DNA of 48,356 nt, from the UHGV virus genome UHGV-1370646; one strand, given 5' to 3'. Below the pieces are notes generated by a model. It was not told the DNA's origin. It made no database searches and was given only the letters and a program-made list of their open reading frames with translations. The translations under genes and the position numbers were made by a program. Of the stretch, positions 6,200 through 48,046 are shown one piece after another (positions within the stretch are counted from its first letter, which is position 1; every line of letters begins with the position of its first letter). Source of the stretch: a virus.

Positions 6200-7171
6200 T
6201 CAGTAACTGATACCGGTATGAGGAATGCGGCCGTCTTTAACCGCGGTGAGCACCTCGATAGCCTGATCCCGAGTAAGGCTGGTATTGGCCAGAAGAGCTT
6301 TGACGATTTCAGTGCCTACAGCCTTGCGGTGCTTAACGTCGGCTTCGCGTCGCGCCTGCTCATCGGCTTTGCGTTTATCCTCAGCCAGGCGGGCCTGTTC
6401 GCGTTGCTCTGCCTCGCGGCGGATGCGATCGGCTTCTTCCTGAGCTTTGCGGCGCTCCGCTTCGATAGCGGCCTGCTTGTCAGCCTCAGCTTTCTGCTCG
6501 GCTGCAATGCGATCTCGCTCTGCCTGCTCAGCTTGTGCTTTCAACACAGCTTCACGATGCGCCGCTTCTTCACGTTCACGCTGTGCGCGCTGCTCAACTT
6601 CGCGGGCTGCTGCAGCTGCTGCCAGTCGCTTAATTTCTTCTTCATGGGCAATGCGCTGGCGCTCAGCCTCAGCCGCTTTATCTGCCTGCTCACGATCGAA
6701 AGCGTCATTCATCAGCAGAGCCATTTCGTGGTCAGACTCAATACGAGCTGCCAGCCGCCGATCGAAGTTTTCATTCATGGCCAGTGCTTCGACGTGAAGG
6801 GCGAGCATGGCTTCTTCGGCCTTAATGCGTTCCTGCTCCGCCTCCCATTCGGTCAACGGGCGACGCACTTCATCTTTCAGTGCATCGAGACGCTCACGGA
6901 CAACGCGGCGGCTTTCATCAATCTGCTTTGGCAGCGCCTTCAGCTCAGCGACCAGGTCTTTACCTGCGTTGTCGATGTAGGTTTTAGAGCGCGCCACCTT
7001 GTGAGCCATGGATGCGATGGCGTCGCGGCCTTTTTTGGTGGTCACGTCCGGCACCAGACTGCGAGCCTCTTTTTCGATCGCTTCGATAAGCGGATCGAGT
7101 TGGTCGTTATTGGTGAAAACCGCCATCGCGTTCCTTTTCTCGATGACGACTAAATCCATTATTTCGCTCAT
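6200..7171 (-). CDS. Coiled-coil protein with Ala/Glu/Arg-rich repeats. A recombination-associated role is possible.
   Basis: 323 aa with a long low-complexity EAERQRIAHEEE.../AEQAERDRIAAEQKAE... segment. The large plus-strand ORFs over it are shadow ORFs of this GC-rich repeat. Confidence 0.6.
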   Translation of the reverse strand: MSEIMDLVVIEKRNAMAVFTNNDQLDPLIEAIEKEARSLVPDVTTKKGRDAIASMAHKVARSKTYIDNAGKDLVAELKALPKQIDESRRVVRERLDALKDEVRRPLTEWEAEQERIKAEEAMLALHVEALAMNENFDRRLAARIESDHEMALLMNDAFDREQADKAAEAERQRIAHEEEIKRLAAAAAAREVEQRAQREREEAAHREAVLKAQAEQAERDRIAAEQKAEADKQAAIEAERRKAQEEADRIRREAEQREQARLAEDKRKADEQARREADVKHRKAVGTEIVKALLANTSLTRDQAIEVLTAVKDGRIPHTGISY

Positions 7172-8698: not shown

Positions 8699-9376
8699 TC
8701 ATGGAATATTCAATATCTTAGCATCTACTACAACCCCTACAATCCTACAGTTTCCGTTAATTTCAATCATCGGATACTGTGGGTTTAAGGGCTTCAGGAA
8801 GCGCCTTCCAGCATCAATTACTAACTTTTTGAAAGTGGCTTCATTATCGCCTTCCAACTTGGCCACAACCAATTTCCCATTAATAGGCTCTACTTCAGGA
8901 TCAACCAGGATAGCTGCACCTTCAGGAATGCTAAGGCCGACAGGAGATGTCATAGAATCGCCGTGGACATCTAACCAGAAAGAATCGTCAGAGCATTCGA
9001 CGGTTGTTTCATACCAGCGGTCAATCGCTCTTCGGTGATAAGGCTCTACTGCTTCCATCCACTGTCCGGCACTAACCCAGCTGATCACTGGGTAGCTCCC
9101 CTGAGGGGTATTTACTGATCTGAATGTTACGTTCGTGTGGTTCTCTTTGGCATGTAACGTATCCATCCAGCCGAAAGGCAGATTGAGTGCAGATTCAATT
9201 TTACGAGCCATTTTATCGCCGATGTTTCTATGAGGTTTATCACCTATCAGCTGACTCAGAGCTGCTGGGCTTGTATCGATAAGCTCTGCAAATTGAGCCT
9301 TGTTCAGGCCTGCATCTACACGCTGCTGTTCGATCAAGTTCTCCAGATTCGCTTTTCTAATCTCTTTACTTTCCAT
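8699..9376 (-). CDS. cI: CI-like prophage repressor (HTH plus LexA-like S24 autocleavage domain)
   Basis: Start chosen at MESKEIRKANLE (ATG 9374-9376). C-terminal GDSM serine and KKL lysine fit the S24 peptidase family. Divergent from cro across an operator region. Confidence 0.85.
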   Translation of the reverse strand: MESKEIRKANLENLIEQQRVDAGLNKAQFAELIDTSPAALSQLIGDKPHRNIGDKMARKIESALNLPFGWMDTLHAKENHTNVTFRSVNTPQGSYPVISWVSAGQWMEAVEPYHRRAIDRWYETTVECSDDSFWLDVHGDSMTSPVGLSIPEGAAILVDPEVEPINGKLVVAKLEGDNEATFKKLVIDAGRRFLKPLNPQYPMIEINGNCRIVGVVVDAKILNIP

Positions 9377-9491: not shown

Positions 9492-9725
9492 ATGAGTAAT
9501 GAACTTTTACGCTGGCGAAAAGATGCCAGCACAGGCGAGTGGGCTCAGTTGGCAAAACTGGCAAACACAACCGTTGGTTATCTGGATCAAATCGCCTATG
9601 GAAACCGTCGGGCATCGCCTGAGAAGGCAGAGGCAATAGAAGAGGCAACCAAAGGGTTTAGCCATTACCAACCCGTATCAAAAGAGAGCCTTGTTTTTTC
9701 ACGTCCGAGATGTTCCGCGGCTTAA
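9492..9725 (+). CDS. cro: Cro-like HTH regulator
   Basis: 77 aa. HTH WAQLAKLANTTVGYLDQIAYG. Divergent from cI. RBS GGGGAGG. Confidence 0.7.
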   Translation: MSNELLRWRKDASTGEWAQLAKLANTTVGYLDQIAYGNRRASPEKAEAIEEATKGFSHYQPVSKESLVFSRPRCSAA

Positions 9726-9743
9726 CAACAGGAAATATCACAA

Positions 9744-10064
9744 ATGCAAAGCGCAATAGCCCGCAACTTAGAACCGCCGATCCTCAACCCGATTGAGCTG
9801 GAAGGGGTTTTACTCAACCGCCTTTCATCCATTGGGCAGAAGGCTTACGCGGAGATATTGGGTATCAGTGAATCAACAGTCAGTCGCAGAAAGGGGGAAG
9901 GGCATTTCGCTGACATAGCAAAAGAGTTGTCCGTGCTTGGTCTGCAGGTTGTGCCGCCTGAAGCGGTAGTGGTTTCCCGGCATTACCTGCAGTCGGTAGA
10001 AACGCTGGCAGATATCGGATTACGTGCAGAGCGGTGCCGACCAGGACCGTTGGGATGGGACTAA
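9744..10064 (+). CDS. cII: CII-like transcriptional activator
   Basis: 106 aa. AYAEILGISESTVSRRKGE parallels lambda CII KTAEAVGVDKSQISRWKRD. Correct position after cro. Confidence 0.55.
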   Translation: MQSAIARNLEPPILNPIELEGVLLNRLSSIGQKAYAEILGISESTVSRRKGEGHFADIAKELSVLGLQVVPPEAVVVSRHYLQSVETLADIGLRAERCRPGPLGWD

Positions 10065-17403: not shown

Positions 17404-17540
17404 ACCGTGAAGTTATCGAACGCATCCACGACCGCTGGCAAAAGCTCCGTCTCTGCCGGCACCGCGGCACCGTACTGGTTGACTACCGAATTTTGAAGAA
17501 TTTCGTCCGCATCTATCAGGCTTCAGGAGAGAAAGCATGA
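17400..17540 (+). CDS. Small ORF (46 aa) coupled between rusA and Q
   Basis: ATGA overlaps on both ends. Not in the track. Confidence 0.3.
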
Positions 17541-18226
17541 ATACCCAGTATCTTGAGTATGTTCGCCAGCAGCTGATAGTGGCCACCGCCGATCTGAGCG
17601 GCGCGACGAAAGGACAGTTGGTTGCTTTTGCAGAAAACGCGCAATTCACCGCTACGGCGCGCAGCCGGGGAAGGAAGAAAATAGCCGATCCGGTAACCGG
17701 CCGCATGGTAAACCCATCCAGCCCACCAATTCCCGGGCAGCAGTCCCGCGCTAAGGGTTCATCAATCGCTCTCGTTCTGCCCGTTGAGTATTCGACGGCC
17801 AGTTGGCGCCGGGCTCTGCTGTCGCTGGAAGAGCATCAGAAATCGTGGCTGCTGTGGAACTACAGCGACAATATCCGCTGGGAGCACCAGGAGACGATCA
17901 CCCGGTGGGCATGGGAGCAATTCTACGAAAAGCTGGCCGGCGTGCGCATTGCAAAGAAAACAGTCGATCGCCTGCGTCAACTCATCTGGCTGGCCGCGCA
18001 GGATGTCAAAGCCGAGCTGGCAGGGCGGGAGACGTATGAATACCAAAAACTTGCCGCTCTGGTCGGAGTGACCCCGAAGAACTGGTCAGAAACGTTTACG
18101 GAGCGGTGGGAGGAGATGAAAACAACCTTGCGGCGCCTTGATAGCGATGCCCTGTTGCAGGTAACGCGATCACGTTCACAACAAAAGGCGACAAATTTTG
18201 ACTCAAGTCTTGCAAAACTGGATTAA
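17537..18226 (+). CDS. Q: Late-gene antiterminator Q (phage 82/21-type family)
   Basis: 229 aa. Sits between rusA and the tRNA/lysis region, where lambdoid Q lies. Size fits the Phage_antitermQ family. Confidence 0.65.
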   Translation: MNTQYLEYVRQQLIVATADLSGATKGQLVAFAENAQFTATARSRGRKKIADPVTGRMVNPSSPPIPGQQSRAKGSSIALVLPVEYSTASWRRALLSLEEHQKSWLLWNYSDNIRWEHQETITRWAWEQFYEKLAGVRIAKKTVDRLRQLIWLAAQDVKAELAGRETYEYQKLAALVGVTPKNWSETFTERWEEMKTTLRRLDSDALLQVTRSRSQQKATNFDSSLAKLD

Positions 18227-18642: not shown

Positions 18643-18720
18643 GTTCGCATAGCTTAACAAGGTTAAAGCACCCGACTCATAATCGGATGATTTCAGGTTC
18701 GAACCCTGATGCGAGCACCA
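18643..18720 (+). tRNA. Phage tRNA with anticodon CAT (ileZ-like Ile2/lysidine type, or Met)
   Basis: Cloverleaf traced by hand. Acceptor GTTCGCA/TGCGAGC, anticodon loop CTCATAA, T-loop GGTTCGAACCC, discriminator A plus CCA. Confidence 0.8.
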
Positions 18721-18725
18721 ATTCA

Positions 18726-18802
18726 GCGCCATTAGCTCAACCGGAGAGAGCAATAGCCTTCTAAGCTATCGGTTTCAGGTTCGAGTCCTGAATGGTGCAC
18801 CA
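18726..18802 (+). tRNA. Phage tRNA-Arg (anticodon TCT, argO-like)
   Basis: Acceptor GCGCCAT/ATGGTGC, anticodon stem ATAGC/GCTAT with loop CTTCTAA, T-loop GGTTCGAGTCC, CCA end. Same isoacceptor as the host att tRNA. Confidence 0.85.
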
Positions 18803-35608: not shown

Positions 35609-36451
35609 ATGTCGTTTTCTCTGAATGTCTCGACAGTGCTATCCGCCATTCAGGGAGGAAGCCTGTTATCCGTCCTTAACAGCGCCCTGTCGCCAACTTA
35701 CCGGATCACCTACAACACGGTGGATAAGTCAATTTCAACCGCAATAGCCGGGCAGGAGGTTTTCTCTCCGTCCGGCTGGGTTAGTGTTGATCGCTACGGT
35801 GATGCTAACGTGACGAAGGGGCCGGTTGAAAATGGGCAGTATACTTCGTACAACAAGGTCCGGCAGCCATCGGAGTTAAGGGTGATCCTGGCGCTTGAAG
35901 GATGGACCGCATATACAGGAGCGCTTCCAAATCTGACAAACTTCTCTCTTCTTAGCCGAAGTAATTTCATCAAAAAGCTTGATGAGATGAAAAACACGGC
36001 TAGCACCTACAACATCGAGACACCTGATACGGTGTATTACAGCTACGATCTGACCCACTTTGATTACTTTGTGGGGTCGTATCGTGGGCAGACGTTGTTG
36101 ATGGCGAACTGCACTTTCGAGGAGATCATGGATAGCGGTGAAGTAATTATCGCTAATGGGGTTTCCGGTAAGGCACCGACAAATAACGACAAAACAAACA
36201 ACAAGGGCGCTGCAAAAACAGAGGTGATCACTGCTTCAACTAAAGAAGTAACACTTACTGACGCAAAAAACGCATGGACAAGCGGAAATTCATCGCTATC
36301 AAGCGCTATTGATCTTACCGGCAGTGCCATAGTTTCAGGTGTCAATTCGGCGGCCAAATCGGTATCGCAAGTATGGGATAACTCATCTACAGCGGTCTCA
36401 AAACAGATCAAAAGCACGGTGGCTGATTTTCTTAAAAATAAGGTGATGTGA
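35609..36451 (+). CDS. Tail/baseplate protein (hypothetical)
   Basis: 280-aa ORF directly after the tape measure. Confidence 0.5.
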   Translation: MSFSLNVSTVLSAIQGGSLLSVLNSALSPTYRITYNTVDKSISTAIAGQEVFSPSGWVSVDRYGDANVTKGPVENGQYTSYNKVRQPSELRVILALEGWTAYTGALPNLTNFSLLSRSNFIKKLDEMKNTASTYNIETPDTVYYSYDLTHFDYFVGSYRGQTLLMANCTFEEIMDSGEVIIANGVSGKAPTNNDKTNNKGAAKTEVITASTKEVTLTDAKNAWTSGNSSLSSAIDLTGSAIVSGVNSAAKSVSQVWDNSSTAVSKQIKSTVADFLKNKVM

Positions 36452-36452
36452 C

Positions 36453-36758
36453 ATGCAGGAAATTAGCTTATCACCGTCACTTTCTCAAAAGGTGTATGTT
36501 ACGCTTGGTGGACAGAACTGCGCGATCAAGCTTCATCAGCGCTCAACTGGATTCTACATAGACCTGTATGTTGATGACACGGCAATTATGCAAGGTGTTC
36601 TCTGCCTTAACTGTATATATCTTGTCAGATATAAGTATCTTGGATTTAATGGTGATCTCATTTTTGTAGACACAAAAGGGGATTCCGATCCGGTTTATGA
36701 CGAAATAGGGACGCGCTTTAAGCTTTATTATGCATCGAGCGATGAGGTGGGCCGATGA
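36453..36758 (+). CDS. Small baseplate-associated protein (hypothetical)
   Basis: 101-aa ORF in the tail module. Confidence 0.45.
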   Translation: MQEISLSPSLSQKVYVTLGGQNCAIKLHQRSTGFYIDLYVDDTAIMQGVLCLNCIYLVRYKYLGFNGDLIFVDTKGDSDPVYDEIGTRFKLYYASSDEVGR

Positions 36759-37609
36759 GTTACAAGGAAAGAGAGATAACGGTTGAGTTTACTCTGGCCA
36801 ATGGGACCTTTGACGGTAAAAAAGGTAACACGCTCATAGCCGAAGGGTTCAAGTGCGAGCTTTCTGTTTCGGCTTATGGGGGAGCTACCGGGACGATGAT
36901 GGAGCTTAGCCTGTGGGGCTTATCCCTTGATAACATGGCTAAATTGACCACCAACTCCGAAAAATTCTTCGGTGAGCAGCAAAACGCCATACGGGTTTTT
37001 ACTGGAGATGTTTGCGTGTTTATGGGCACGATAATATCTGCCAGGGTTAATCTGAATCAAATGCCTGATGCTCCGATTGAAATAACGGCCTCCGCTATTG
37101 GAAAGGAAAAGCTTGTCGTATGCGAGCCAACTTCAATTGAAGGTGAAGCGTCTGTCGCTGATATGATAAAAGCACTGGCCTCTAAGGTGGATTTGAAGTT
37201 CGTAAATGTTGATGTTAAATCGGTGCATAGCAACCCTTATTATGAGGGAAATGCTATTGAGCAAATTCAGAAAATTGCGGCCGATCACAATATTATTGCA
37301 GATATAGACTTTGGGACGGTTACAATCTACACGGGGGAAAGCCCTATTGATTCTGTGGTTCCATTTATATCTCCAGAACATGGACTAATTGGCTATCCTA
37401 TTTTTTATGATATTGGTATAAATTTTCGCTGCATTTATTCACCATCAATAAAGCTGGCTCGAAAAATAAAACTGGAAACCTCTCTCCCTCACGCAAGCGG
37501 GGATTGGATAGTCCAGTATGGAACCACTCATTACTTGTCATGCAGGGTCCCCGGTGGTCTATGGGAAACATTCGTTGTAGCTTATCCCGGATTTGTATTT
37601 GGAGTGTGA
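36755..37609 (+). CDS. Baseplate hub-like protein (hypothetical)
   Basis: 284-aa ORF preceding the spike gene. Confidence 0.5.
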   Translation: MSYKEREITVEFTLANGTFDGKKGNTLIAEGFKCELSVSAYGGATGTMMELSLWGLSLDNMAKLTTNSEKFFGEQQNAIRVFTGDVCVFMGTIISARVNLNQMPDAPIEITASAIGKEKLVVCEPTSIEGEASVADMIKALASKVDLKFVNVDVKSVHSNPYYEGNAIEQIQKIAADHNIIADIDFGTVTIYTGESPIDSVVPFISPEHGLIGYPIFYDIGINFRCIYSPSIKLARKIKLETSLPHASGDWIVQYGTTHYLSCRVPGGLWETFVVAYPGFVFGV

Positions 37610-37610
37610 G

Positions 37611-38201
37611 ATGCTTACCAAGCAAAAGCCTAGTGACATGTCGTGTCAGGGGAATGCTGTTCTTTCGCTTATAGCCGGAGCCATAAAGGGCTGCGTATTT
37701 GCCGATATCGTTTTAGTCAAAAAAGTGAATGGGAAGACCCTTACCGTTTTTCCTCTGGTTACTGGAACAAACGCTTCTGGCGGATCAATTGAAAACCAGG
37801 ATGTTTACAATGTTCCATTCATTCAGTACCAGGCTGGAAATAGTTCGGTAAAAATGACGCCCAGAGTAGGTGATATTGGCTTGGTGATTGCCTGTGATAA
37901 AGACATCACAAATGTGAAAAAAACTAAAGGCGGAGGCCCTCCACCAACTCAGCGGCGCCACTCATACTCAGATGCTGTTTACATCACGGCGATCGCTAGC
38001 CTGAATGATGAGCCGACGGAGCTTGCAGAGTTCACCGGTAGCGGCATAAACATCAAGAGCCCTGGCGTAGTTAACATCAACGGCATGAAAGTACACCCAG
38101 ACGGGAAACTTGAGCTTGTCGATGGCTCTATCGTTGATGGGCATACTCATGGTGGGGTAGTATCAGGAGGAAGCCGAACCGATCCTCTGGGGGCGGCATA
38201 G
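37611..38201 (+). CDS. Baseplate spike/assembly protein (gpV-like)
   Basis: Start MLTKQKPSDM. An OB-fold-like N-terminus, then a Gly-rich C-terminus (HTHGGVVSGGSRTD). Position is typical of gpV. Confidence 0.55.
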   Translation: MLTKQKPSDMSCQGNAVLSLIAGAIKGCVFADIVLVKKVNGKTLTVFPLVTGTNASGGSIENQDVYNVPFIQYQAGNSSVKMTPRVGDIGLVIACDKDITNVKKTKGGGPPPTQRRHSYSDAVYITAIASLNDEPTELAEFTGSGINIKSPGVVNINGMKVHPDGKLELVDGSIVDGHTHGGVVSGGSRTDPLGAA

Positions 38202-38212
38202 AGGGAATAAAA

Positions 38213-38593
38213 ATGTCGTTTTTAGTTATTGCAGCATTGTTGGGATTAATACCTGCGTTCATTGCGCAAAGTAAGGGGCGATCTTTCGGCGGTTGGTGGC
38301 TCTATGGATTCTTGCTTTTCATCGTTGCAATTATTCACGTTCTTTTCGTCCCCTCGCTTAATTCTTCTGGCGCTGCCGTAGCTGATTCTAAGGGCCCAAT
38401 GAGGGACTGCCCCTACTGTGCAGAGCCAGTGAAGTATCAGGCTACGAAGTGCAAGCATTGCGGGAGTGAGATTACCCCGATGGTATTACCAGAGCCAAAA
38501 TACAACGGCACTCAAATTGCTTGGGATCGGGTGCTGATTCTCATAGGAGGTATTGTGGCTGTTGCTTTGCTTTTCGGAGCTATGCACGATTGA
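38213..38593 (+). CDS. Membrane protein with a cytosolic C4 zinc-ribbon (accessory gene)
   Basis: 126 aa. Two N-terminal TM helices, CPYCAEPVKYQATKCKHCGS, and a C-terminal TM helix. AT-rich. It interrupts the baseplate gene series. Confidence 0.6.
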   Translation: MSFLVIAALLGLIPAFIAQSKGRSFGGWWLYGFLLFIVAIIHVLFVPSLNSSGAAVADSKGPMRDCPYCAEPVKYQATKCKHCGSEITPMVLPEPKYNGTQIAWDRVLILIGGIVAVALLFGAMHD

Positions 38594-38619
38594 TGATGCC
38601 CACGTGTGTGGGCACCTCC

Positions 38620-38826
38620 TCAGCCGAATCTGTCTTTAAAGCTGATGTCACTTTTTCTTTTTTTCATTTTGCTATTGCAGTTCGGGCAAAGGTGTTGCTT
38701 TTTGCCGTCGATCTTCCAGGTGTAGTAGTTACGTTTAAAACCTGTGCCGCATACATCGCAACGCCTTGGTTTGAAAAGGTTAACGAGAAACACTATTACG
38801 ATTACGCCAATAATCCATTCCATCAT
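38620..38826 (-). CDS. Small membrane protein with a C4 zinc-ribbon (accessory gene), convergent with the gene above
   Basis: 68 aa. N-terminal TM (WIIGVIVIVFLVNLF), CDVCGTGF...CPNCNS, and a basic tail. AT-rich. Confidence 0.5.
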   Translation of the reverse strand: MMEWIIGVIVIVFLVNLFKPRRCDVCGTGFKRNYYTWKIDGKKQHLCPNCNSKMKKRKSDISFKDRFG

Positions 38827-38843
38827 GTTCTCCAGAGGTTTTG

Positions 38844-39208
38844 CTATTTATCGTTGTCAAGATAACCCATGCGCTTCCCAAGGATTGCAGCAAGCCTTCT
38901 GTTATGTTCCTCTCCCTCACGAAGAATTGCAGCGGTAAAGGGGTCTCTTTTTTCAAGCTCAGCGAGAAACGCGGCTTTTTCCTCTGGCGTGGATTTTGAA
39001 TCCAAGGCCGCCTGAGTTGAATCAAAATCGACAATGTCGCTTTCAGCTATCAGCTTTTCTGTCTCCAGCGCATCTTGAAGGATCTGGACAATCTCAGAGT
39101 TCATAGACCTTCCGTTGCGCTTGGCCCGCGCAGCTATGGCGTCGCGCATACCATCAGGAAAGCGAAGGTTGAACTTGTCGTAGTCTTTTACTTGTTTTTC
39201 GGCCATTG
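38844..39208 (-). CDS. mnt: Mnt-like ribbon-helix-helix repressor (Arc/MetJ family)
   Basis: Start MAEKQVKDYDKFNLRFPDGMRDAIAARAKRNGRSMNSEIVQILQDAL, close to P22 Mnt (FNFRMPMEVREKLKFRAEANGRSMNSELLQIVQDAL). Divergent from an arc-ant pair. Confidence 0.75.
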
Positions 39209-39313
39209 CAAATCCCTCAAAAAAAATCATGGTGCCATATTGCCATACGATTTCAATGGTGGCACAGTGGCCTACATGGCGTCACTCTGGCACCAAATAA
39301 AGGAGATTAGATA
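39209..39313. promoter_or_regulatory. Divergent promoter/operator region between mnt and arc, with repeated GGTGCCA / TGCCATA motifs
   Basis: GGTGCCA (39231), TGCCATA x2 direct (39233, 39241), GGTGGCA (39259) and the inverted TGGCACC (39289). RBS AGGAG before arc. Confidence 0.45.
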
Positions 39314-39487
39314 ATGCAAGATACACTTTTCACTGAGCGCAAAAACATCAAAATCAACCTACGTCTTCCATCACGACTAAACGAGGAAGTTCGCCGCCTA
39401 GCTGAAATGGACTGTATTTCTCTTAATTCGGCGATTGTTCGTTTGCTGGCAAAAGGCGTGAGGGAAGAGGTGGCGAATGGTCGCTAA
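39314..39487 (+). CDS. arc: Arc-like ribbon-helix-helix repressor (57 aa)
   Basis: Not in the track. MQDTLFTERKNIKINLRLPSRLNEEVRRLAEMDCISLNSAIVRLLAKG. An RHH pattern like P22 Arc (FNLRWPREVLDLVRKVAEENGRSVNSEIYQRV). Confidence 0.6.
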   Translation: MQDTLFTERKNIKINLRLPSRLNEEVRRLAEMDCISLNSAIVRLLAKGVREEVANGR

Positions 39488-39560
39488 AAACAGCGAAGCC
39501 CGGAAGTGCGCTAACACTATCCGGGCCTCTATCGAAAATAACCGCGAAGGAAATATCGAC

Positions 39561-40196
39561 ATGAACATTGTAGCTAAATCAGATTTCAACTTCCATGGTG
39601 TAACGCTTAATCCGGTAGAAAATGTCACAGGTGTCTGGCTGACATCTGCAGATATTGCGAAGGCTCTCGGTTACAAAAGCACCAAGTCAATTTCTAACCT
39701 CTTCGCTCAGTACGAAGATGAGTTCTCTCAGGGTATGACAATGGTCATTGAATCAGTGACCAATGGAATAAATGGCTCTACCCGCAGGATGAAAGTTCGC
39801 GTCTTCTCTATGCGCGGTGCCCATCTTATCGCAATGTTTGCCCGCACTCCGGTAGCCAAAGAGTTTCGCCGCTGGGTTCTGGATATTCTGGATCGGGAAG
39901 TGGCGCATTCGCCGATTGCGAAGCAGTTCAGTGATGATGAGCTTTGCTCTTTGGCATGGTTATGGCGTGCCAGCGACATCATGCTCAAGGCCTGCGATAG
40001 CGTCACTCCGTTGTTGAAAGTGGCTGGGCATCGCCAAGCTGGGCATTTTCATTCAATCGGGCAGGAATTGCCACGATCGATTAACAAGGCAAGAGAAGTG
40101 ATTAAGCGCGAGACGGCGCATATCGAATTTCACCCATGGAAGGATGATAACTGGAGCAGGGTATTACCACACCTGCGTCAGGAGATGTTGCAGTGA
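39561..40196 (+). CDS. ant: Antirepressor (Bro-N / AntA-like N-terminal domain)
   Basis: Start MNIVAKSDFNFHGVTLNPVENVTGVWLTSADIAKALGYKSTKSISNL after RBS GAAGGA (the track's longer form starts at 39477). Directly downstream of arc, as in P22 immI. Confidence 0.75.
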   Translation: MNIVAKSDFNFHGVTLNPVENVTGVWLTSADIAKALGYKSTKSISNLFAQYEDEFSQGMTMVIESVTNGINGSTRRMKVRVFSMRGAHLIAMFARTPVAKEFRRWVLDILDREVAHSPIAKQFSDDELCSLAWLWRASDIMLKACDSVTPLLKVAGHRQAGHFHSIGQELPRSINKAREVIKRETAHIEFHPWKDDNWSRVLPHLRQEMLQ

Positions 40197-40265
40197 TGCA
40201 TAAATAGAAAAGCCGGTAGTTACGAGCTACCGGCCATCCATAAATCTGTCATAAGGGTCCAACCA

Positions 40266-41018
40266 ATGACTTCATTAAATTTAGCACCAAAAAGCAGTGT
40301 TGTCACCGATAAAACCATTGACAGCCAGTCTTTGCTGATGATGGTCAATCAGGCTCGCAAGCAGTGCGGGGAGCCAGAGGTACGCAACAATAAGTTCATT
40401 GAAAAAGTAGTCGACGAACTTGATGGGGAGTTTTACACAAAAAGTGTAAAACCCTCCGGCACTAATGGCGGCCGTCCTGTTGAGGTAATTGACATGACGA
40501 TCAAGCAGGCCCTTCGCGTGGCGGCCCGTGAGTCTAAAGCCGTTCGCCGCTCTTTGGTTGATAAGCTGGAAGACATGCAGGCTATCCAGGTGCCGACCAA
40601 AAGCACCTCAGGGCTTACTGAATATCGGCTTGCCAAAGCTGAACAACTCAAAGCTCAGGCGCTGGAGAAAAACATCGCATCGGCCCGCGAGCTGATGTCA
40701 ATGTTCCCTCGGCTTGGTGAATCGGCTAACCAGGTGATCGTCGCCACTCTCGTTAACCCACTTCTCGGTCATGAAGTTGTGCCACTGCCGGCGATTGAAG
40801 AGCATTACTATACGGCGGGTGAAGTGGCGGCGCAGCTCGGTTGCACTGCGAACAAGATCGGTCGTGTGGCTAATAAACACAATCTGAAAACAGAGCAGTA
40901 CGGCAAGTTCTTTCTGGATAAGTCGAGACACTCAGATAAGCAGGTTGAGGCGTTCCGCTACAATGCAGAAGGTGTAAAGGCATTGCGCCACCTGATCCAT
41001 GGCGCAGATGTAGCCTAA
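40266..41018 (+). CDS. Second antirepressor-like / phage regulatory protein
   Basis: 250 aa. A C-terminal HTH-like stretch (YTAGEVAAQLGCTANKIGRVANKHNL). Same operon as ant. Family uncertain. Confidence 0.45.
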   Translation: MTSLNLAPKSSVVTDKTIDSQSLLMMVNQARKQCGEPEVRNNKFIEKVVDELDGEFYTKSVKPSGTNGGRPVEVIDMTIKQALRVAARESKAVRRSLVDKLEDMQAIQVPTKSTSGLTEYRLAKAEQLKAQALEKNIASARELMSMFPRLGESANQVIVATLVNPLLGHEVVPLPAIEEHYYTAGEVAAQLGCTANKIGRVANKHNLKTEQYGKFFLDKSRHSDKQVEAFRYNAEGVKALRHLIHGADVA

Positions 41019-41062
41019 CTATCTGATAATAAATCTAAGCACTAATTAGTGCTTCGAAAACC

Positions 41063-41089
41063 AAACCTCGCTTCGGCGGGGTTTTTTTA
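41063..41089 (+). terminator. Rho-independent terminator closing the accessory cassette
   Basis: CCTCGC-TTCG-GCGGGG followed by TTTTTTTAT. Confidence 0.55.
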
Positions 41090-41101
41090 TGGGCGAAATC
41101 C

Positions 41102-41458
41102 ATGAAAACAATCTCTCTCAAACTCGATCCCGAAACCTGGGACCTTGTCCTTGATGAGCTGGGTAATATCGCCACGGTAGAAAACCCCTACGCCTGCGCT
41201 CAGGACGTAGCGACGGCATGCCTGGCTATACGCGGTGAATGCATTTACGAAAAAGATACCGGCGTTAATTACAAAGAGCTGCTGAACGTTAAGGCCAGCA
41301 CTGGCGCCATGGCGGCCGCGCTTCAGGTTGAAGCGTTGCGGATGAGCTATATCGCACGCGCTGAGCCGACGCTGATTAACAACCGAGATACGCGCCGCAC
41401 TACCGGCGTTATTGCGATCGTGGATACCAACGGCCTGGATTCCAGCGTCACCCTGTGA
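41102..41458 (+). CDS. Baseplate protein (gpW/gp25-like position)
   Basis: 118 aa, directly upstream of the Baseplate-J-like gene. Confidence 0.5.
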   Translation: MKTISLKLDPETWDLVLDELGNIATVENPYACAQDVATACLAIRGECIYEKDTGVNYKELLNVKASTGAMAAALQVEALRMSYIARAEPTLINNRDTRRTTGVIAIVDTNGLDSSVTL

Positions 41459-41465
41459 GGAAAAA

Positions 41466-42698
41466 ATGACGACAATCTCTACGGCAGTACCGGCCGTGAC
41501 ATTTTCCACCACTGGCCTTGATGTTCCAGATGAGGGAGACATTCTTGCCGGGCGTATAGCAGATATTGGTTCTGCATTCGGGACGGCGATGAGCACGAAC
41601 CTCAAGACGCCGCAGGGGCAACTGGCTGTCACTGATACTGCAATCATTGCAGACAAGAACGATCAGCTTCTGGCCATCGTAAACAACATGAACCCGGACT
41701 TTTCCTCCGGCAGGTTTCAGGATGGCATCGGCAGGATTTACTTCCTCGATCGCATTGCTGCTGCGGGTACGGTTGTAACGGCCACATGCTCCGGCGTACC
41801 GGGAACGGTGATCCCGGCACAGTCCTATGCAACCGACGACAACGGTTATATGTACGTGTCCCTGGCGGCCGGAACGATAGGCGCAGACGGGACGGTAAAG
41901 ATCGAGTTCCAGAACCTGACTACCGGGCCGATAGCTTGCCCCATTGGTACGCTGACAAACATCTATGTCGCGGTAAGTGGCTGGTCGAGTATCACCAACG
42001 AGACCGCGGGTGTACCGGGCTCGAATGTTGAAGGGCGATCTGCATTTGAGTATCGCCGTCGCCAGTCAGTGGCACGTAACGCCTTCAACACGGCAGCGGC
42101 TGTGCGGGCTGCTGTCCTGGAAGTCGATGGGGTGCTTGATGTTTATGTGATCGACAACAAAGAGCCGACTTCTGTCGAAAAAGGTTCCACGAATTACACG
42201 CTGCTTGCCAGCTCGATTTATATCGGGGTTTATGGCGGGGCAGTGGCTGAGATTGCAGCGGCCATCAATAAAAAACTCCCCCCGGGCACCGTTATGAACG
42301 GTGACACCACCGGAACCGTGCAGGATACCGAAAATTATGACGCCCCTTATCCGGAGTACACCTACAGGTGGAAAACGCTGGATGCGGTGAGCGTTCATAT
42401 CAAGGTGGAATACGAAGCGAATGATGGCCTTCCGTCAGATATCAACGTGCAGATCAGAGCGGTCGTCCTGAATGCCTTCACCGGCGCAGATGGCGGTACC
42501 CGGGCGCGTGCCGGCGCGCGAATTTATGGCAGCCGCTATATCGGACCCATTCAGGCGCTTGATGCACAGAACATGAACGTTCTTTCGGTCCAGATATCTC
42601 TGAACGGAACAACATGGTCTAGTGCGCTGACCATGGGCATTGATCAGGAACCGACCCTCGATACGACAAACATCATAACGGAGGCGGTAAGTGAATAA
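41466..42698 (+). CDS. Baseplate J-like wedge protein
   Basis: Start MTTISTAVPA after RBS GAGG (the track's longer form starts at 41412). Size and position are those of P2 gpJ. Confidence 0.65.
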   Translation: MTTISTAVPAVTFSTTGLDVPDEGDILAGRIADIGSAFGTAMSTNLKTPQGQLAVTDTAIIADKNDQLLAIVNNMNPDFSSGRFQDGIGRIYFLDRIAAAGTVVTATCSGVPGTVIPAQSYATDDNGYMYVSLAAGTIGADGTVKIEFQNLTTGPIACPIGTLTNIYVAVSGWSSITNETAGVPGSNVEGRSAFEYRRRQSVARNAFNTAAAVRAAVLEVDGVLDVYVIDNKEPTSVEKGSTNYTLLASSIYIGVYGGAVAEIAAAINKKLPPGTVMNGDTTGTVQDTENYDAPYPEYTYRWKTLDAVSVHIKVEYEANDGLPSDINVQIRAVVLNAFTGADGGTRARAGARIYGSRYIGPIQALDAQNMNVLSVQISLNGTTWSSALTMGIDQEPTLDTTNIITEAVSE

Positions 42699-43278
42699 TG
42701 TTGACTGGACGATCTACGCGCAGTACGTGAACTCAACCAGCCTGCGGTCACTGATTGACACCTTTAACGCTTCTGTAGCGCCAGAGGACTGGATAGACAC
42801 GTTCTATGACCTCGTATTCAACATCGAGACCTGCGGCGATTACGGGCTGATGTGCTGGGGTAAAATCGTTGATGTAGAGCGTTTGCTGACTGTGACGCCA
42901 TCCCAGCAGTTTCTGGGGTTTGGCGAAGCGACCAGCACCCCGGCAGAACTCACCGACCCGCAACCCTTTAACCAGGCGCCTTTCTATACCGGCGTACAGG
43001 ACACGAACACAGTGGTCCTGACCAATGATGCATACCGCAAGCTGATCATGTGCAAAGCGATGGCTAACATCAGCGACTGCACCGTGCCGATCATGAATCG
43101 CATGCTGATGTACATGTTCGGCTCCAGCGGGCGAGCTTACGTGCGTGATGATGGCAACCATGTCATGAGCTACGTATTCGAATTTCAACTTTCCGAATCT
43201 GAGCTGGCCATAGTGCAAAGCTCGGGCGCGCTTCCTTCCCCGCCTGGGGTAAAAGTAAACATCGTTCAGGAGGTCTGA
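42691..43278 (+). CDS. Baseplate protein (gpI-like)
   Basis: 195 aa following baseplate J. Confidence 0.5.
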   Translation: MNNVDWTIYAQYVNSTSLRSLIDTFNASVAPEDWIDTFYDLVFNIETCGDYGLMCWGKIVDVERLLTVTPSQQFLGFGEATSTPAELTDPQPFNQAPFYTGVQDTNTVVLTNDAYRKLIMCKAMANISDCTVPIMNRMLMYMFGSSGRAYVRDDGNHVMSYVFEFQLSESELAIVQSSGALPSPPGVKVNIVQEV

Positions 43279-47451: not shown

Positions 47452-47471
47452 TACTGTATATGCAAACAGTA
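47452..47471. promoter_or_regulatory. LexA box (SOS operator)
   Basis: TACTGTATATGCAAACAGTA fits CTGT-N8-ACAG. Lies 19 bp upstream of an RBS and ATG. Confidence 0.7.
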
Positions 47472-47489
47472 TTTATCGGAGGGCAGATC

Positions 47490-47729
47490 ATGCTTCGACA
47501 GTCAGACATCGCCGCGGCTTTCCGCGAGTCCATTTTGCGCAGTTCCAAGGGGTTTCAATACCTTCACACCCGCGACTTCGTTACTGCGCTTCGCCGGCGC
47601 GGCATTCATTTTACCGAGGTGGAGGCGAATTCCTGGATCGCGCGGGAACAAACGTATTTTGTCGATAAGACGCCGGACCATAGCGAAAACCGCCTGTGGA
47701 TGATGGCAGGGATGGGGAGGGTCATCTGA
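47490..47729 (+). CDS. SOS-regulated hypothetical protein (79 aa)
   Basis: Start MLRQSDIAAAF after RBS GGAGGG. The LexA box lies in its promoter. TGATG overlap with the next gene. Confidence 0.5.
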   Translation: MLRQSDIAAAFRESILRSSKGFQYLHTRDFVTALRRRGIHFTEVEANSWIAREQTYFVDKTPDHSENRLWMMAGMGRVI

Positions 47730-48046
47730 TGGGATTCCCTTCACCCGCGACGGATTACGTCGAGCAAAGGTTGTCTGTTAACTCGATCTGCAATGTCGGC
47801 CCTAACACCCGCGTTTTCGAAAGGGATGGCGGTTATGTCGTAGTAGATATTGGGCTTAAACCCAAGCAGGGAAGCCAGCTCATTATTTTATACGATGGCA
47901 GGTCTGAGCTTGCAAAGCTGATGGGGCGATCGCTTATAACCGAAGATGGCGAAGCGATTGAAGGCGAGGCTCTGGATGATGTCACTGTCGCCGGCGTCGT
48001 GACACATATCATTTGTGATGTGCGAGGCGATAGCCTGGCGGTTTAA
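47729..48046 (+). CDS. UmuD-like protein (LexA/UmuD S24 fold). The catalytic-serine motif appears to be absent.
   Basis: Start MGFPSPATDYVEQRLSVNSI, near-identical to the UmuD N-terminal motif GFPSPAADYVEQRIDLNQL. The C-terminal VAGVVTHIICDV parallels UmuD VFGVVIHVVK. ERDGGY replaces ASGDSM. Confidence 0.6.
   Translation: MGFPSPATDYVEQRLSVNSICNVGPNTRVFERDGGYVVVDIGLKPKQGSQLIILYDGRSELAKLMGRSLITEDGEAIEGEALDDVTVAGVVTHIICDVRGDSLAV

Follow-up and report, generated by a model that had tools for sequence, protein, structure and literature searches.

A probable P22-type mnt-arc-sar-ant module in a variable late-operon slot of a contractile-tail Klebsiella phage genome

The window analysed here is the whole 48,356-nt sequence of UHGV virus genome UHGV-1370646, a mosaic Klebsiella temperate phage in which a lambdoid early region is joined to a contractile-tail module. 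Between its gpV-like baseplate spike gene and its gpW-like baseplate gene lies a block of small genes that, judged by gene content, homology, synteny, RNA conservation and covariation, and the variability of the site among relatives, very likely includes a complete P22-type immunity-I ('anti-immunity', immI) module, mnt-arc-sar-ant. Two accessory genes, orf68 and ORF250, accompany the module, and the whole would occupy, as a moron, a late-operon slot that is hypervariable. In order, orientation and spacing, the parts follow the annotated P22 immI in nearly every feature.

A reading of this DNA made from its letters alone (the sequence-only reading) had proposed a P22 immI-like mnt/arc/ant cassette, with a minus-strand Mnt-like ribbon-helix-helix (RHH) repressor gene divergent from a 57-residue Arc-like gene and a Bro-N antirepressor gene. 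The open reading frames (ORFs) lie where it had placed them, and Pfam, PHROG, the match to structure 1mnt and the identities to P22 proteins uphold the identification. Two components did not appear in it, the 68-residue orf68 and a sar-like antisense RNA. The parts of the cassette are as follows.

38620-38826, minus strand: orf68, a small membrane protein with a hydrophobic helix at the N-terminus and a zinc ribbon of the form CxxC...CxxC (ORF list; weak zinc-ribbon matches only)
38844-39206, minus strand: mnt-like RHH repressor gene, 120 residues, beginning MAEKQ at the ATG at 39206, with a GAGGG Shine-Dalgarno sequence (Pfam Arc, 69.8 bits)
39207-39313: intergenic candidate promoter/operator region between the divergent mnt and arc
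39314-39487, plus strand: arc-like RHH repressor gene, 57 residues, first gene of the ant operon, directly 5' of ant (Pfam Arc, 22.7 bits; cut-off 20.4)
39560 to ~39486, minus strand: sar-like antisense RNA of two hairpins, the second a terminator with a U-run (Rfam RF00262)
39561-40196, plus strand: ant, antirepressor gene, 211 residues, with an N-terminal Bro-N and a C-terminal P22_AR_C domain (P22_AR_C 56.1 bits; Bro-N 40.5 bits; phrog_245 'anti-repressor Ant', E 1e-67)
40211-40235: GC-rich hairpin 15 nt past the ant stop, with a T-run on the minus-strand side only (terminator scan and sequence)
40266-41018, plus strand: ORF250, 250 residues (phrog_1726, labelled anti-repressor, E 6e-89)

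For the 120-residue Mnt-like protein, the nearest solved structure is P22 Mnt itself (1mnt, E 8e-8); the two are 54% identical over 41 RHH residues, and BLASTP similarity ends at Mnt residue 47. The Arc-like protein, 57 residues long against ~53 in P22, shows 33% identity to P22 Arc and 95% to the Arc of Shiga toxin (Stx) phages, and Ant resembles P22 Ant through the C-terminal P22_AR_C domain (BLASTP E 2e-4). P22 immI likewise has divergent RHH genes around overlapping face-to-face promoters, with arc heading the ant operon, and an antisense RNA of ~70 nt; its annotated ant terminator occupies the place equivalent to the hairpin that follows ant in the window. A small ORF is also found downstream of mnt in P22, although this gene, orf59a, has no similarity to orf68, and homology between the two was rejected despite the shared position.

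A consensus promoter scan found no convincing Pant or Pmnt at threshold, and only a weak site overlapping the arc ATG; the promoters reported here derive from conservation across cassette types. Pant is predicted to have a -35 TTGCCA at 39240-45 and a -10 CACAGT at 39263-68, and Pmnt, on the minus strand, a -35 at 39265-60 and an extended -10 TGgCAATAT at 39245-37. TTGnCA (39240-45) and the A and T of the -10 hexamer (39263-68) are invariant across four cassette types, and the two predicted promoters overlap face to face, as in the annotated P22 record. The same region carries three direct repeats of ~20 bp, repeat R1 at 39229-39248, R2 at 39256-39275 and R3 at 39276-39295. R1 and R2 form the repeat family D1, with 75% identity, and R3 is clear in relatives L025 and L076.

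On the strand opposite the start of ant, the Rfam sar model RF00262 matches 39492-39559 over 68 of its 68 positions (30.1 bits; E-value 2.4e-3 when 2.7 kb was searched, 3.5e-4 for 401 nt), and in a permissive scan of the cassette no Rfam antisense-RNA family beat sar. This strand folds as two hairpins (-35.4 kcal/mol, z-score -5.4), and the loop of hairpin 1 is complementary to the Shine-Dalgarno sequence (AAGGA, 39548) that precedes the ant ATG at 39561. The U-run stops at the arc stop codon (39485-39487) and the 5' end lies at ~39560. The predicted promoter of the RNA, Psar, has a -10 TACAAT at 39572-39567 and a -35 TGGAAG at 39595-39590; TACAAT lies three bases past the ant ATG on the minus strand, with a spacing equal to that of TATACT in P22. 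The annotated P22 record has the same geometry: the terminator of sar and the stop codon of arc overlap, sar begins right beside the ATG of ant, and its promoter Psar is contained in the opening codons of ant.

RF00262 also matches the same syntenic site and strand in the Klebsiella phage KP12 (34.8 bits), in ST512-KPC3phi13.1 (37.6 bits) and in an Stx2a phage (29.5 bits), and the helices of these three differ in sequence while pairing is retained. From the four cassette sequences and P22 sar we built a covariance model (model R1), which replaced a MAFFT alignment in which helix 1 was mis-registered. The model found one full-length element in 79 of the 80 loci recovered by the Mnt protein, and in every case it lies on the strand of mnt; the one locus without it is cut short on the side concerned. 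Applied to a set of relatives anchored on gpW (1.0 Mb; described below), it found the element at 34 of 34 cassette loci, all in the slot and antisense to the late genes, and at none of the 44 loci that lack a cassette. Among 23 distinct sequences, which are related and whose alignment was fitted to the model in a way that favours pairing, 92.2% of cells were paired, against 32-52% with slid partners. Variation on both sides was seen in 13 of the 20 sar pairs, and the 77 compensatory cells were matched in 0 of 500 shuffles.

The position of the RNA argues for a revised start of ant, which the sequence-only reading had begun at 39477. In each of the 20 distinct cassette types scored, out of 23, the 5' end of the sar match has an ATG within 0-3 nt, and a Shine-Dalgarno-like purine run lies 7-9 nt upstream of this ATG, as in P22. 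In four types (P22, L025, L066 and L067) the in-frame upstream extension is only 5-16 codons long, and in L066 and L067 it is without a start codon. Because of this geometry and these short or startless extensions, 39561 is most likely the start of the true, 211-residue ant, and 39477 is probably an artefact of ORF calling that runs over an RNA gene. Public annotations of ant homologues in Stx and Klebsiella phages (L004, 4423-5427; L001, 4983-5666; L005, 4003-4716) start at an ATG that overlaps arc and cross the sar-like RNA gene; these starts are probably ~27-28 codons too early.

The site that holds the cassette, which we call the V-W slot, is defined by the following features.

37593-38201, plus strand: gpV-like baseplate spike gene, left flank, backbone (Pfam PF18352 spike N-terminal domain, 26.1 bits; weak TIGR01644 phage_P2_V match at the C-terminus; kept in 78 relatives)
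38213-38593, plus strand: orf126, first slot gene, a membrane protein (assigned by reading the sequence) with a zinc ribbon (Pfam Zn_ribbon_3; phrog_8436, function unknown)
41063-41090 (41063-41084 in the slot comparison), plus strand: intrinsic terminator directly 5' of gpW, right border of the slot (terminator scan; AACCTCGCTTCGGCGGGGTTTTTTT)
41102-41458, plus strand: gpW/gp25-like baseplate gene, right flank, backbone (phrog_120 'baseplate wedge subunit', E 3e-29; weak Sheath_initiator match)

We compared this slot across 80 IMG/VR relatives with a gpW identity of at least 83%, 78 of which have both flanking genes. Among these 78, the gap between the V and W genes ranges from 457 to 5291 bp, is never empty and has at least eight types of content. 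An immI-like cassette is present in 34 of the gpW-anchored relatives, in several Mnt/Ant types, and 44 are without one and carry unrelated cargo instead. Slot contents include orf126 alone (n=6), an unknown block of ~730 bp (n=12) and an ORF of the type found in RCIP0114, alone (n=14) or, in several more, beside other cargo; a 96-residue ORF of KP12 is a further one. Some of the cassettes in this slot encode Mnt proteins 61-64% identical, and Ant proteins 74-80% identical, to P22's own.

Relatives without the cassette give the borders of the insertion. In PDP110P1 (L002), BLAST homology to the window ends at 38524 and resumes at 41063, with only an orf126 homologue between spike and gpW; in RCIP0114 (L003), it ends at 38190 and resumes at 41065, and the slot gene is an unrelated 263-residue ORF with a signal-peptide-like N-terminus. 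An orf126 homologue is the sole slot gene in several such relatives (L002, L105 and others), and orf126 is a separate moron outside the immI insertion. The terminator upstream of gpW (AACCTCGCTTCGGCGGGGTTTTTTT) is present in 11 of the 12 slot variants examined, whatever the cargo, and the sequence further upstream is unrelated. In L102 (~6960-6990) its stem carries a compensatory change from CTCGC/GCGGG to CCAGC/GCTGG. The terminator belongs to the conserved backbone and not to the cassette, which it had been supposed to close. Given these BLAST borders, the occurrence of orf126 in cassette-less relatives and the backbone origin of the terminator, the insertion proper spans ~38594-41062, rather than the whole block from 38213 to 41090 that had been taken for it.

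The comparison with related prophages that had been suggested as a check thus allowed the borders to be defined, but it did not reveal the directly adjacent gpV and gpW genes that had been looked for: at least one gene for a small membrane or secreted protein lies between them. In the 12 relatives examined (the positions compared include those of the window, 38202-38593, and of L002, L003, L007, L092, L099, L102, L133, L147, L161 and L166), the first gene past the spike stop encodes a small membrane, secreted or lipoprotein-like product. The families at this position vary and include the orf126 type, 'MIKK...LSGCA' lipoproteins and the 263-residue ORF of RCIP0114. The position after the spike stop is a second, independent cargo site, reminiscent of superinfection-exclusion morons.

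Base composition does not mark the cassette as foreign. The block had been described as AT-shifted relative to its flanks, which holds against the right flank (48.2% GC in the cassette, 53.9% in the flank; 52.8% in the whole window) but not against the left (46.9%). About 12% of equal-sized windows are equally or more AT-rich, and with a left flank more AT-rich than the cassette itself, the shift was ruled out as a sign of foreign origin. A mosaic joint is apparent at the slot: the left flank (36002-38524) is ~72% identical to PDP110P1 and RCIP0114, and the right flank (41063-43000) is 96.6% identical. This jump indicates that a recombination boundary within the baseplate module falls at the slot.

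The cassette does lie among tail and baseplate genes, as the sequence-only reading had stated, but there is nothing exceptional in this, since P22 immI likewise sits in the late operon, as part of what Villafane et al. (2008) named the 'ant moron' (PMC2629481). These authors distinguished ten types of the P22-like region in sixteen genomes, with mnt, arc, sar, ant, sieA and small unknown genes as contents, and described it as a fast-changing part of the late operon that may affect late read-through into the tailspike gene (PMC2629481). The slot studied here is of the same kind: a non-morphogenetic block in the late operon whose content varies, across the 78 relatives, where the assembly genes are syntenic. 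In the P22 record ejection gene 16 and tailspike gene 9 enclose immI; in the window it lies between the spike gene and gpW. Both modules precede distal tail genes of a late operon, and the slots that hold them vary among relatives. Differences from P22 include the contractile tail and simple baseplate of the phage of the window, as well as the presence of ORF250 and the absence of sieA in its cassette. Both the type of module and the type of site are familiar ones.

By homology with P22, the following course of events can be proposed. In a lysogen, Mnt expressed from Pmnt, probably with orf68 on the same transcript, would repress the facing Pant, so that no antirepressor is made. Upon infection, Pant would be briefly active and give rise to Arc and Ant, and Arc would then shut the divergent promoters. 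The ~70-nt sar-like RNA, with its promoter within the first ant codons, would pair with the ant ribosome-binding site and block translation of Ant. This block may extend to Q-antiterminated late transcripts, which would have to cross the cassette and terminators to reach gpW, gpJ and the fibre genes; late transcription presumably must cross the terminator upstream of gpW with the help of the Q antiterminator (17537-18226). Ant, once made, would bind CI-type repressors non-covalently and thereby inactivate them.

Several observations weigh against so close an analogy. The RF00262 match, at 30.1 bits, does not reach the Rfam gathering score of 43. The N-terminal domain of Ant is Bro-N and not P22_AR_N, and the C-terminal half of the Mnt-like protein has few conserved columns in a MAFFT alignment and no convincing match to the tetramerisation domain of P22 Mnt. 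Operator logic may also differ from that of P22, since the candidate operators are direct repeats of ~20 bp rather than P22-style palindromes. In the P22-like phage Kapi1, mnt expression was undetectable in lysogens (PMC12922286), and the biological role of P22 Ant itself is not fully understood; Lemire et al. (2011) noted that the targets of P22 Ant include the repressors of phages L, lambda and 21, and that P22's own induction does not require it (PMC3121763).

The last of these findings points to the strongest alternative, in which the module is intact and Ant acts in trans on the repressors of other prophages (crosstalk or transactivation), or in which the Bro-N protein has some other job, such as DNA binding or counter-defence. 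We regard this as possible but clearly the less probable account. Its case is that the range of P22 Ant extends to other phages; that the resident CI has an S24 self-cleavage domain, so that SOS induction needs no antirepressor; and that Ant types are freely shuffled against Mnt/Arc types and backbones, which argues against tight co-adaptation with one CI. A counter-defence job is opposed by the lack of any PADLOC match, and the P22_AR_C domain, together with the whole regulatory architecture, is that of a bona fide antirepressor operon. A target in trans would only refine what Ant acts on; the mechanism would be no different.

Decay of the cassette to a non-functional remnant in a moron slot appears very improbable. 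There are precedents for it in the degraded ant or arc genes of some P22-like 'ant morons' (PMC2629481), and the silence of mnt in Kapi1 lysogens would also be in keeping with it. Here, however, all ORFs are intact and have Shine-Dalgarno sequences, sar pairing is kept by compensatory changes, the -35/-10 positions are invariant across cassette types, and near-identical cassettes occur in many independent contigs.

We give still less credence to the idea that the RHH genes form a toxin-antitoxin or a ParG-like partition module. The RHH domains match the FitA and HicB antitoxin families, though weakly, and among the PHROGs hit by Mnt and Arc several bear the name 'partition protein ATPase'. That label is also the product name of mnt in the P22 RefSeq record (L006, NC_002371, 14519-14770) and may have spread from there to PHROGs 795 and 2685, which pick up homologues of Mnt and Arc. 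Neither a toxin nor a ParA gene is adjacent, the sole gene co-operonic with mnt is orf68, which belongs to no toxin family, and the RHH genes flank an ant operon with a sar RNA.

The outcome that would have counted against the sequence-only reading, a block conserved as a working part of the baseplate module, for which one could cite the co-directionality of ant and ORF250 with the tail genes, is refuted by the variable gap, by the 34 relatives that alone carry cassettes, these being of several types, by the 44 that are entirely without one at a gpW identity of at least 83%, and by the presence of the same module in other tail contexts and in the nin/replication regions of unrelated phages.

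Having set these alternatives against the immI-type reading, we return to its less conserved components. orf68 follows mnt after 17 nt, has a Shine-Dalgarno sequence (GGAG) to itself and is probably co-transcribed with mnt in the lysogen. It matched no PHROG, PADLOC or toxin family, and it recurs at 91-100% identity in many, not all, cassettes. ORF250 had been read as a second antirepressor-like gene. This status is unsupported, because the label comes from PHROG 1726 alone and Foldseek matches to an AlphaFold2 model (predicted local distance difference test score, pLDDT, 70.6) are weak (E 0.1-1). Pfam and NCBIfam gave no match and PADLOC nothing usable; its 1972 homologues are nearly all 'hypothetical' and none has a Pfam domain. 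Homology to P22 Ant was rejected, there being no similarity, and the C-terminal ~65 residues of the model look like a MerR/RacA/Xis-type winged helix. Among cassettes, the presence of ORF250 is independent of the ant type.

The same cassette occurs in the same V-W slot in Klebsiella phages KP12, KpnBHU6 and klb_E, with ~90% DNA identity over 84-94% of the block. KP12 (L001) differs in having another Mnt N-terminus, another intergenic region and another Arc (63% identity), which amounts to another immunity specificity, as well as one extra ORF, that of 96 residues; its cassette genes are annotated only as hypothetical, Rha or KilA. A second set of relatives is formed by Stx-converting lambdoid phages (such as Stx2a_WGPS6, phage 2851 and YYZ-2008), which are 88.8% identical in DNA over window positions 39055-39500, that is, the N-terminal part of mnt, the intergenic region, arc and the first bases past arc. 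In these phages, too, the module lies within tail genes and has a sar-like RNA at the same site, whereas Ant has 307 residues with another body, the C-terminal half of Mnt is of another type, and orf68 and ORF250 are absent. In the literature searched, we found no account of this cassette in Klebsiella phages, nor of sar in Stx phages.

These comparisons show the mnt gene of the window to be recombinant, since residues 1-25 of its product are identical to the Stx-phage type and the remainder is of the KP12 type. Correspondingly, the block at 39055-39500 belongs with the Stx phages, and the remainder of mnt, together with orf68, belongs with KP12. Across natural chimeras of this sort, arc and the intergenic region move jointly with the Mnt N-terminus, meaning residues 1-25, in which the recognition strand lies; within the intergenic region, 39207 to ~39272 goes with the type of Mnt N-terminus and the part downstream goes with arc. 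An attempt to use the chimeras to assign single repeats to Mnt or Arc was unsuccessful, as ST512phi13.1 and KP12 conflict: they have a common Arc beta-strand, yet their sequences downstream of the -10 differ. Unlike the window with its direct repeats, the ST512 type carries ATGTCACGGTGACAT in its intergenic region, a sequence that we take to resemble the P22 mnt operator.

Outside the V-W slot, the module lies in Stx2 phages between genes annotated as minor tail protein and C40 peptidase (the equivalents of lambda L and K), in ST512-KPC3phi13.1 between the major tail and tape-measure genes, and in a second contractile-tail lineage between the sheath side and the baseplate genes. Other copies adjoin NinG and terminase, replication or head genes, and the notion that the cassette is always in tail modules was accordingly rejected. 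In one group of contigs (L078, 794-2002, and L086), mnt, arc and ant are found beside a replication O-like gene and a transposase, with no tail genes; the module is therefore not confined to late operons. In this survey, whose loci are not independent samples, ant is co-directional with every identified flanking gene and mnt is opposed, which suggests functional coupling to read-through transcription. One possibility is that the sar-like RNA shields ant from late transcripts; another is that the cassette adjusts the dosage of the distal tail genes.

A broader proposal, for which we see the case as evenly balanced, is that mnt-arc-sar-ant is a self-contained mobile module, repeatedly captured in rightward, mostly late or tail, operons, whose antisense RNA family extends far beyond P22-like podoviruses to contractile-tail Klebsiella phages, Stx lambdoid siphoviruses and others, where it has gone unannotated by falling below the Rfam threshold. 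If this is true, the chimeras, in which the Mnt N-terminus, operators and arc are exchanged as a single block, would define interchangeable anti-immunity specificities. The comparisons made here show that the textbook P22 anti-immunity circuit, including its antisense RNA, is not peculiar to P22-like podoviruses but is shuffled cargo in clinically relevant Klebsiella prophages and Stx phages.

The cassette does not overturn current understanding. What it adds is a sub-threshold but well-supported sar homologue, a corrected ant start, the recognition of the V-W site as a hot spot for cargo, and the wide range of contexts recorded for the module. Many database records need a corrected ant start and annotation of a sar-like RNA, and the Rfam sar family could be widened. 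The natural chimeras offer a ready panel for mapping repeat recognition by Mnt and Arc, and in Klebsiella, as in Stx-producing E. coli, trans-acting antirepressors could couple the induction of prophages that share a host cell.

The window corresponds to approximately a whole temperate phage genome, with an integrase gene at 61-1224 on the minus strand. By megablast it is a mosaic Klebsiella pneumoniae phage, nearest to ST15-VIM1phi2.1, KpnBHU6 and klb_E (94-95% identity over about one third of the first 25 kb). Its contractile-type tail module comprises a DUF3383 sheath, an SLT-bearing tape measure, a Pam3/E217-like plug and hub, and gpJ. The early region and its regulators include the following genes.

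8699-9370, minus strand: CI-like repressor gene (HTH_3 and Peptidase_S24)
9492-9725, divergent from cI: 77-residue ORF in the place of cro (no family match)
9744-10064: gene for a CII homologue (homology)
17537-18226: lambda-type Q antiterminator gene

The sequence-only reading had described a separate cI/cro immunity region. The CI-like repressor bears this out, but the cro label is positional only, because the 77-residue ORF matches no family.

In encoding a predicted trans-acting repressor inactivator away from the primary immunity region, the phage resembles those with LexA-controlled antirepressors (Gifsy GfoA/GftA and N15 AntC) and P1, with its immI (c4 RNA-icd-ant). It differs from them in its control, which here would be by two RHH repressors and a cis-antisense RNA. 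SOS control of ant was considered and rejected, as the cassette and its surroundings contain no LexA box and the sole match in the window, at 47452-47471, is ~8 kb from ant. This match is a perfect LexA (SOS) box, TACTGTATATGCAAACAGTA, followed ~20 nt further by a GGAGG Shine-Dalgarno sequence and an ATG at 47490. The operon behind it (47452-48046) encodes a 79-residue protein (phrog_3893, without a Pfam match) and an overlapping UmuD-like protein of 116 residues (phrog_3469). As with Tum or the Gifsy proteins, the 79-residue product could act as an antirepressor induced by SOS and so add a layer of induction control. Two neighbouring tRNA genes lie at 18643-18799, between the Q gene and the lysis region.

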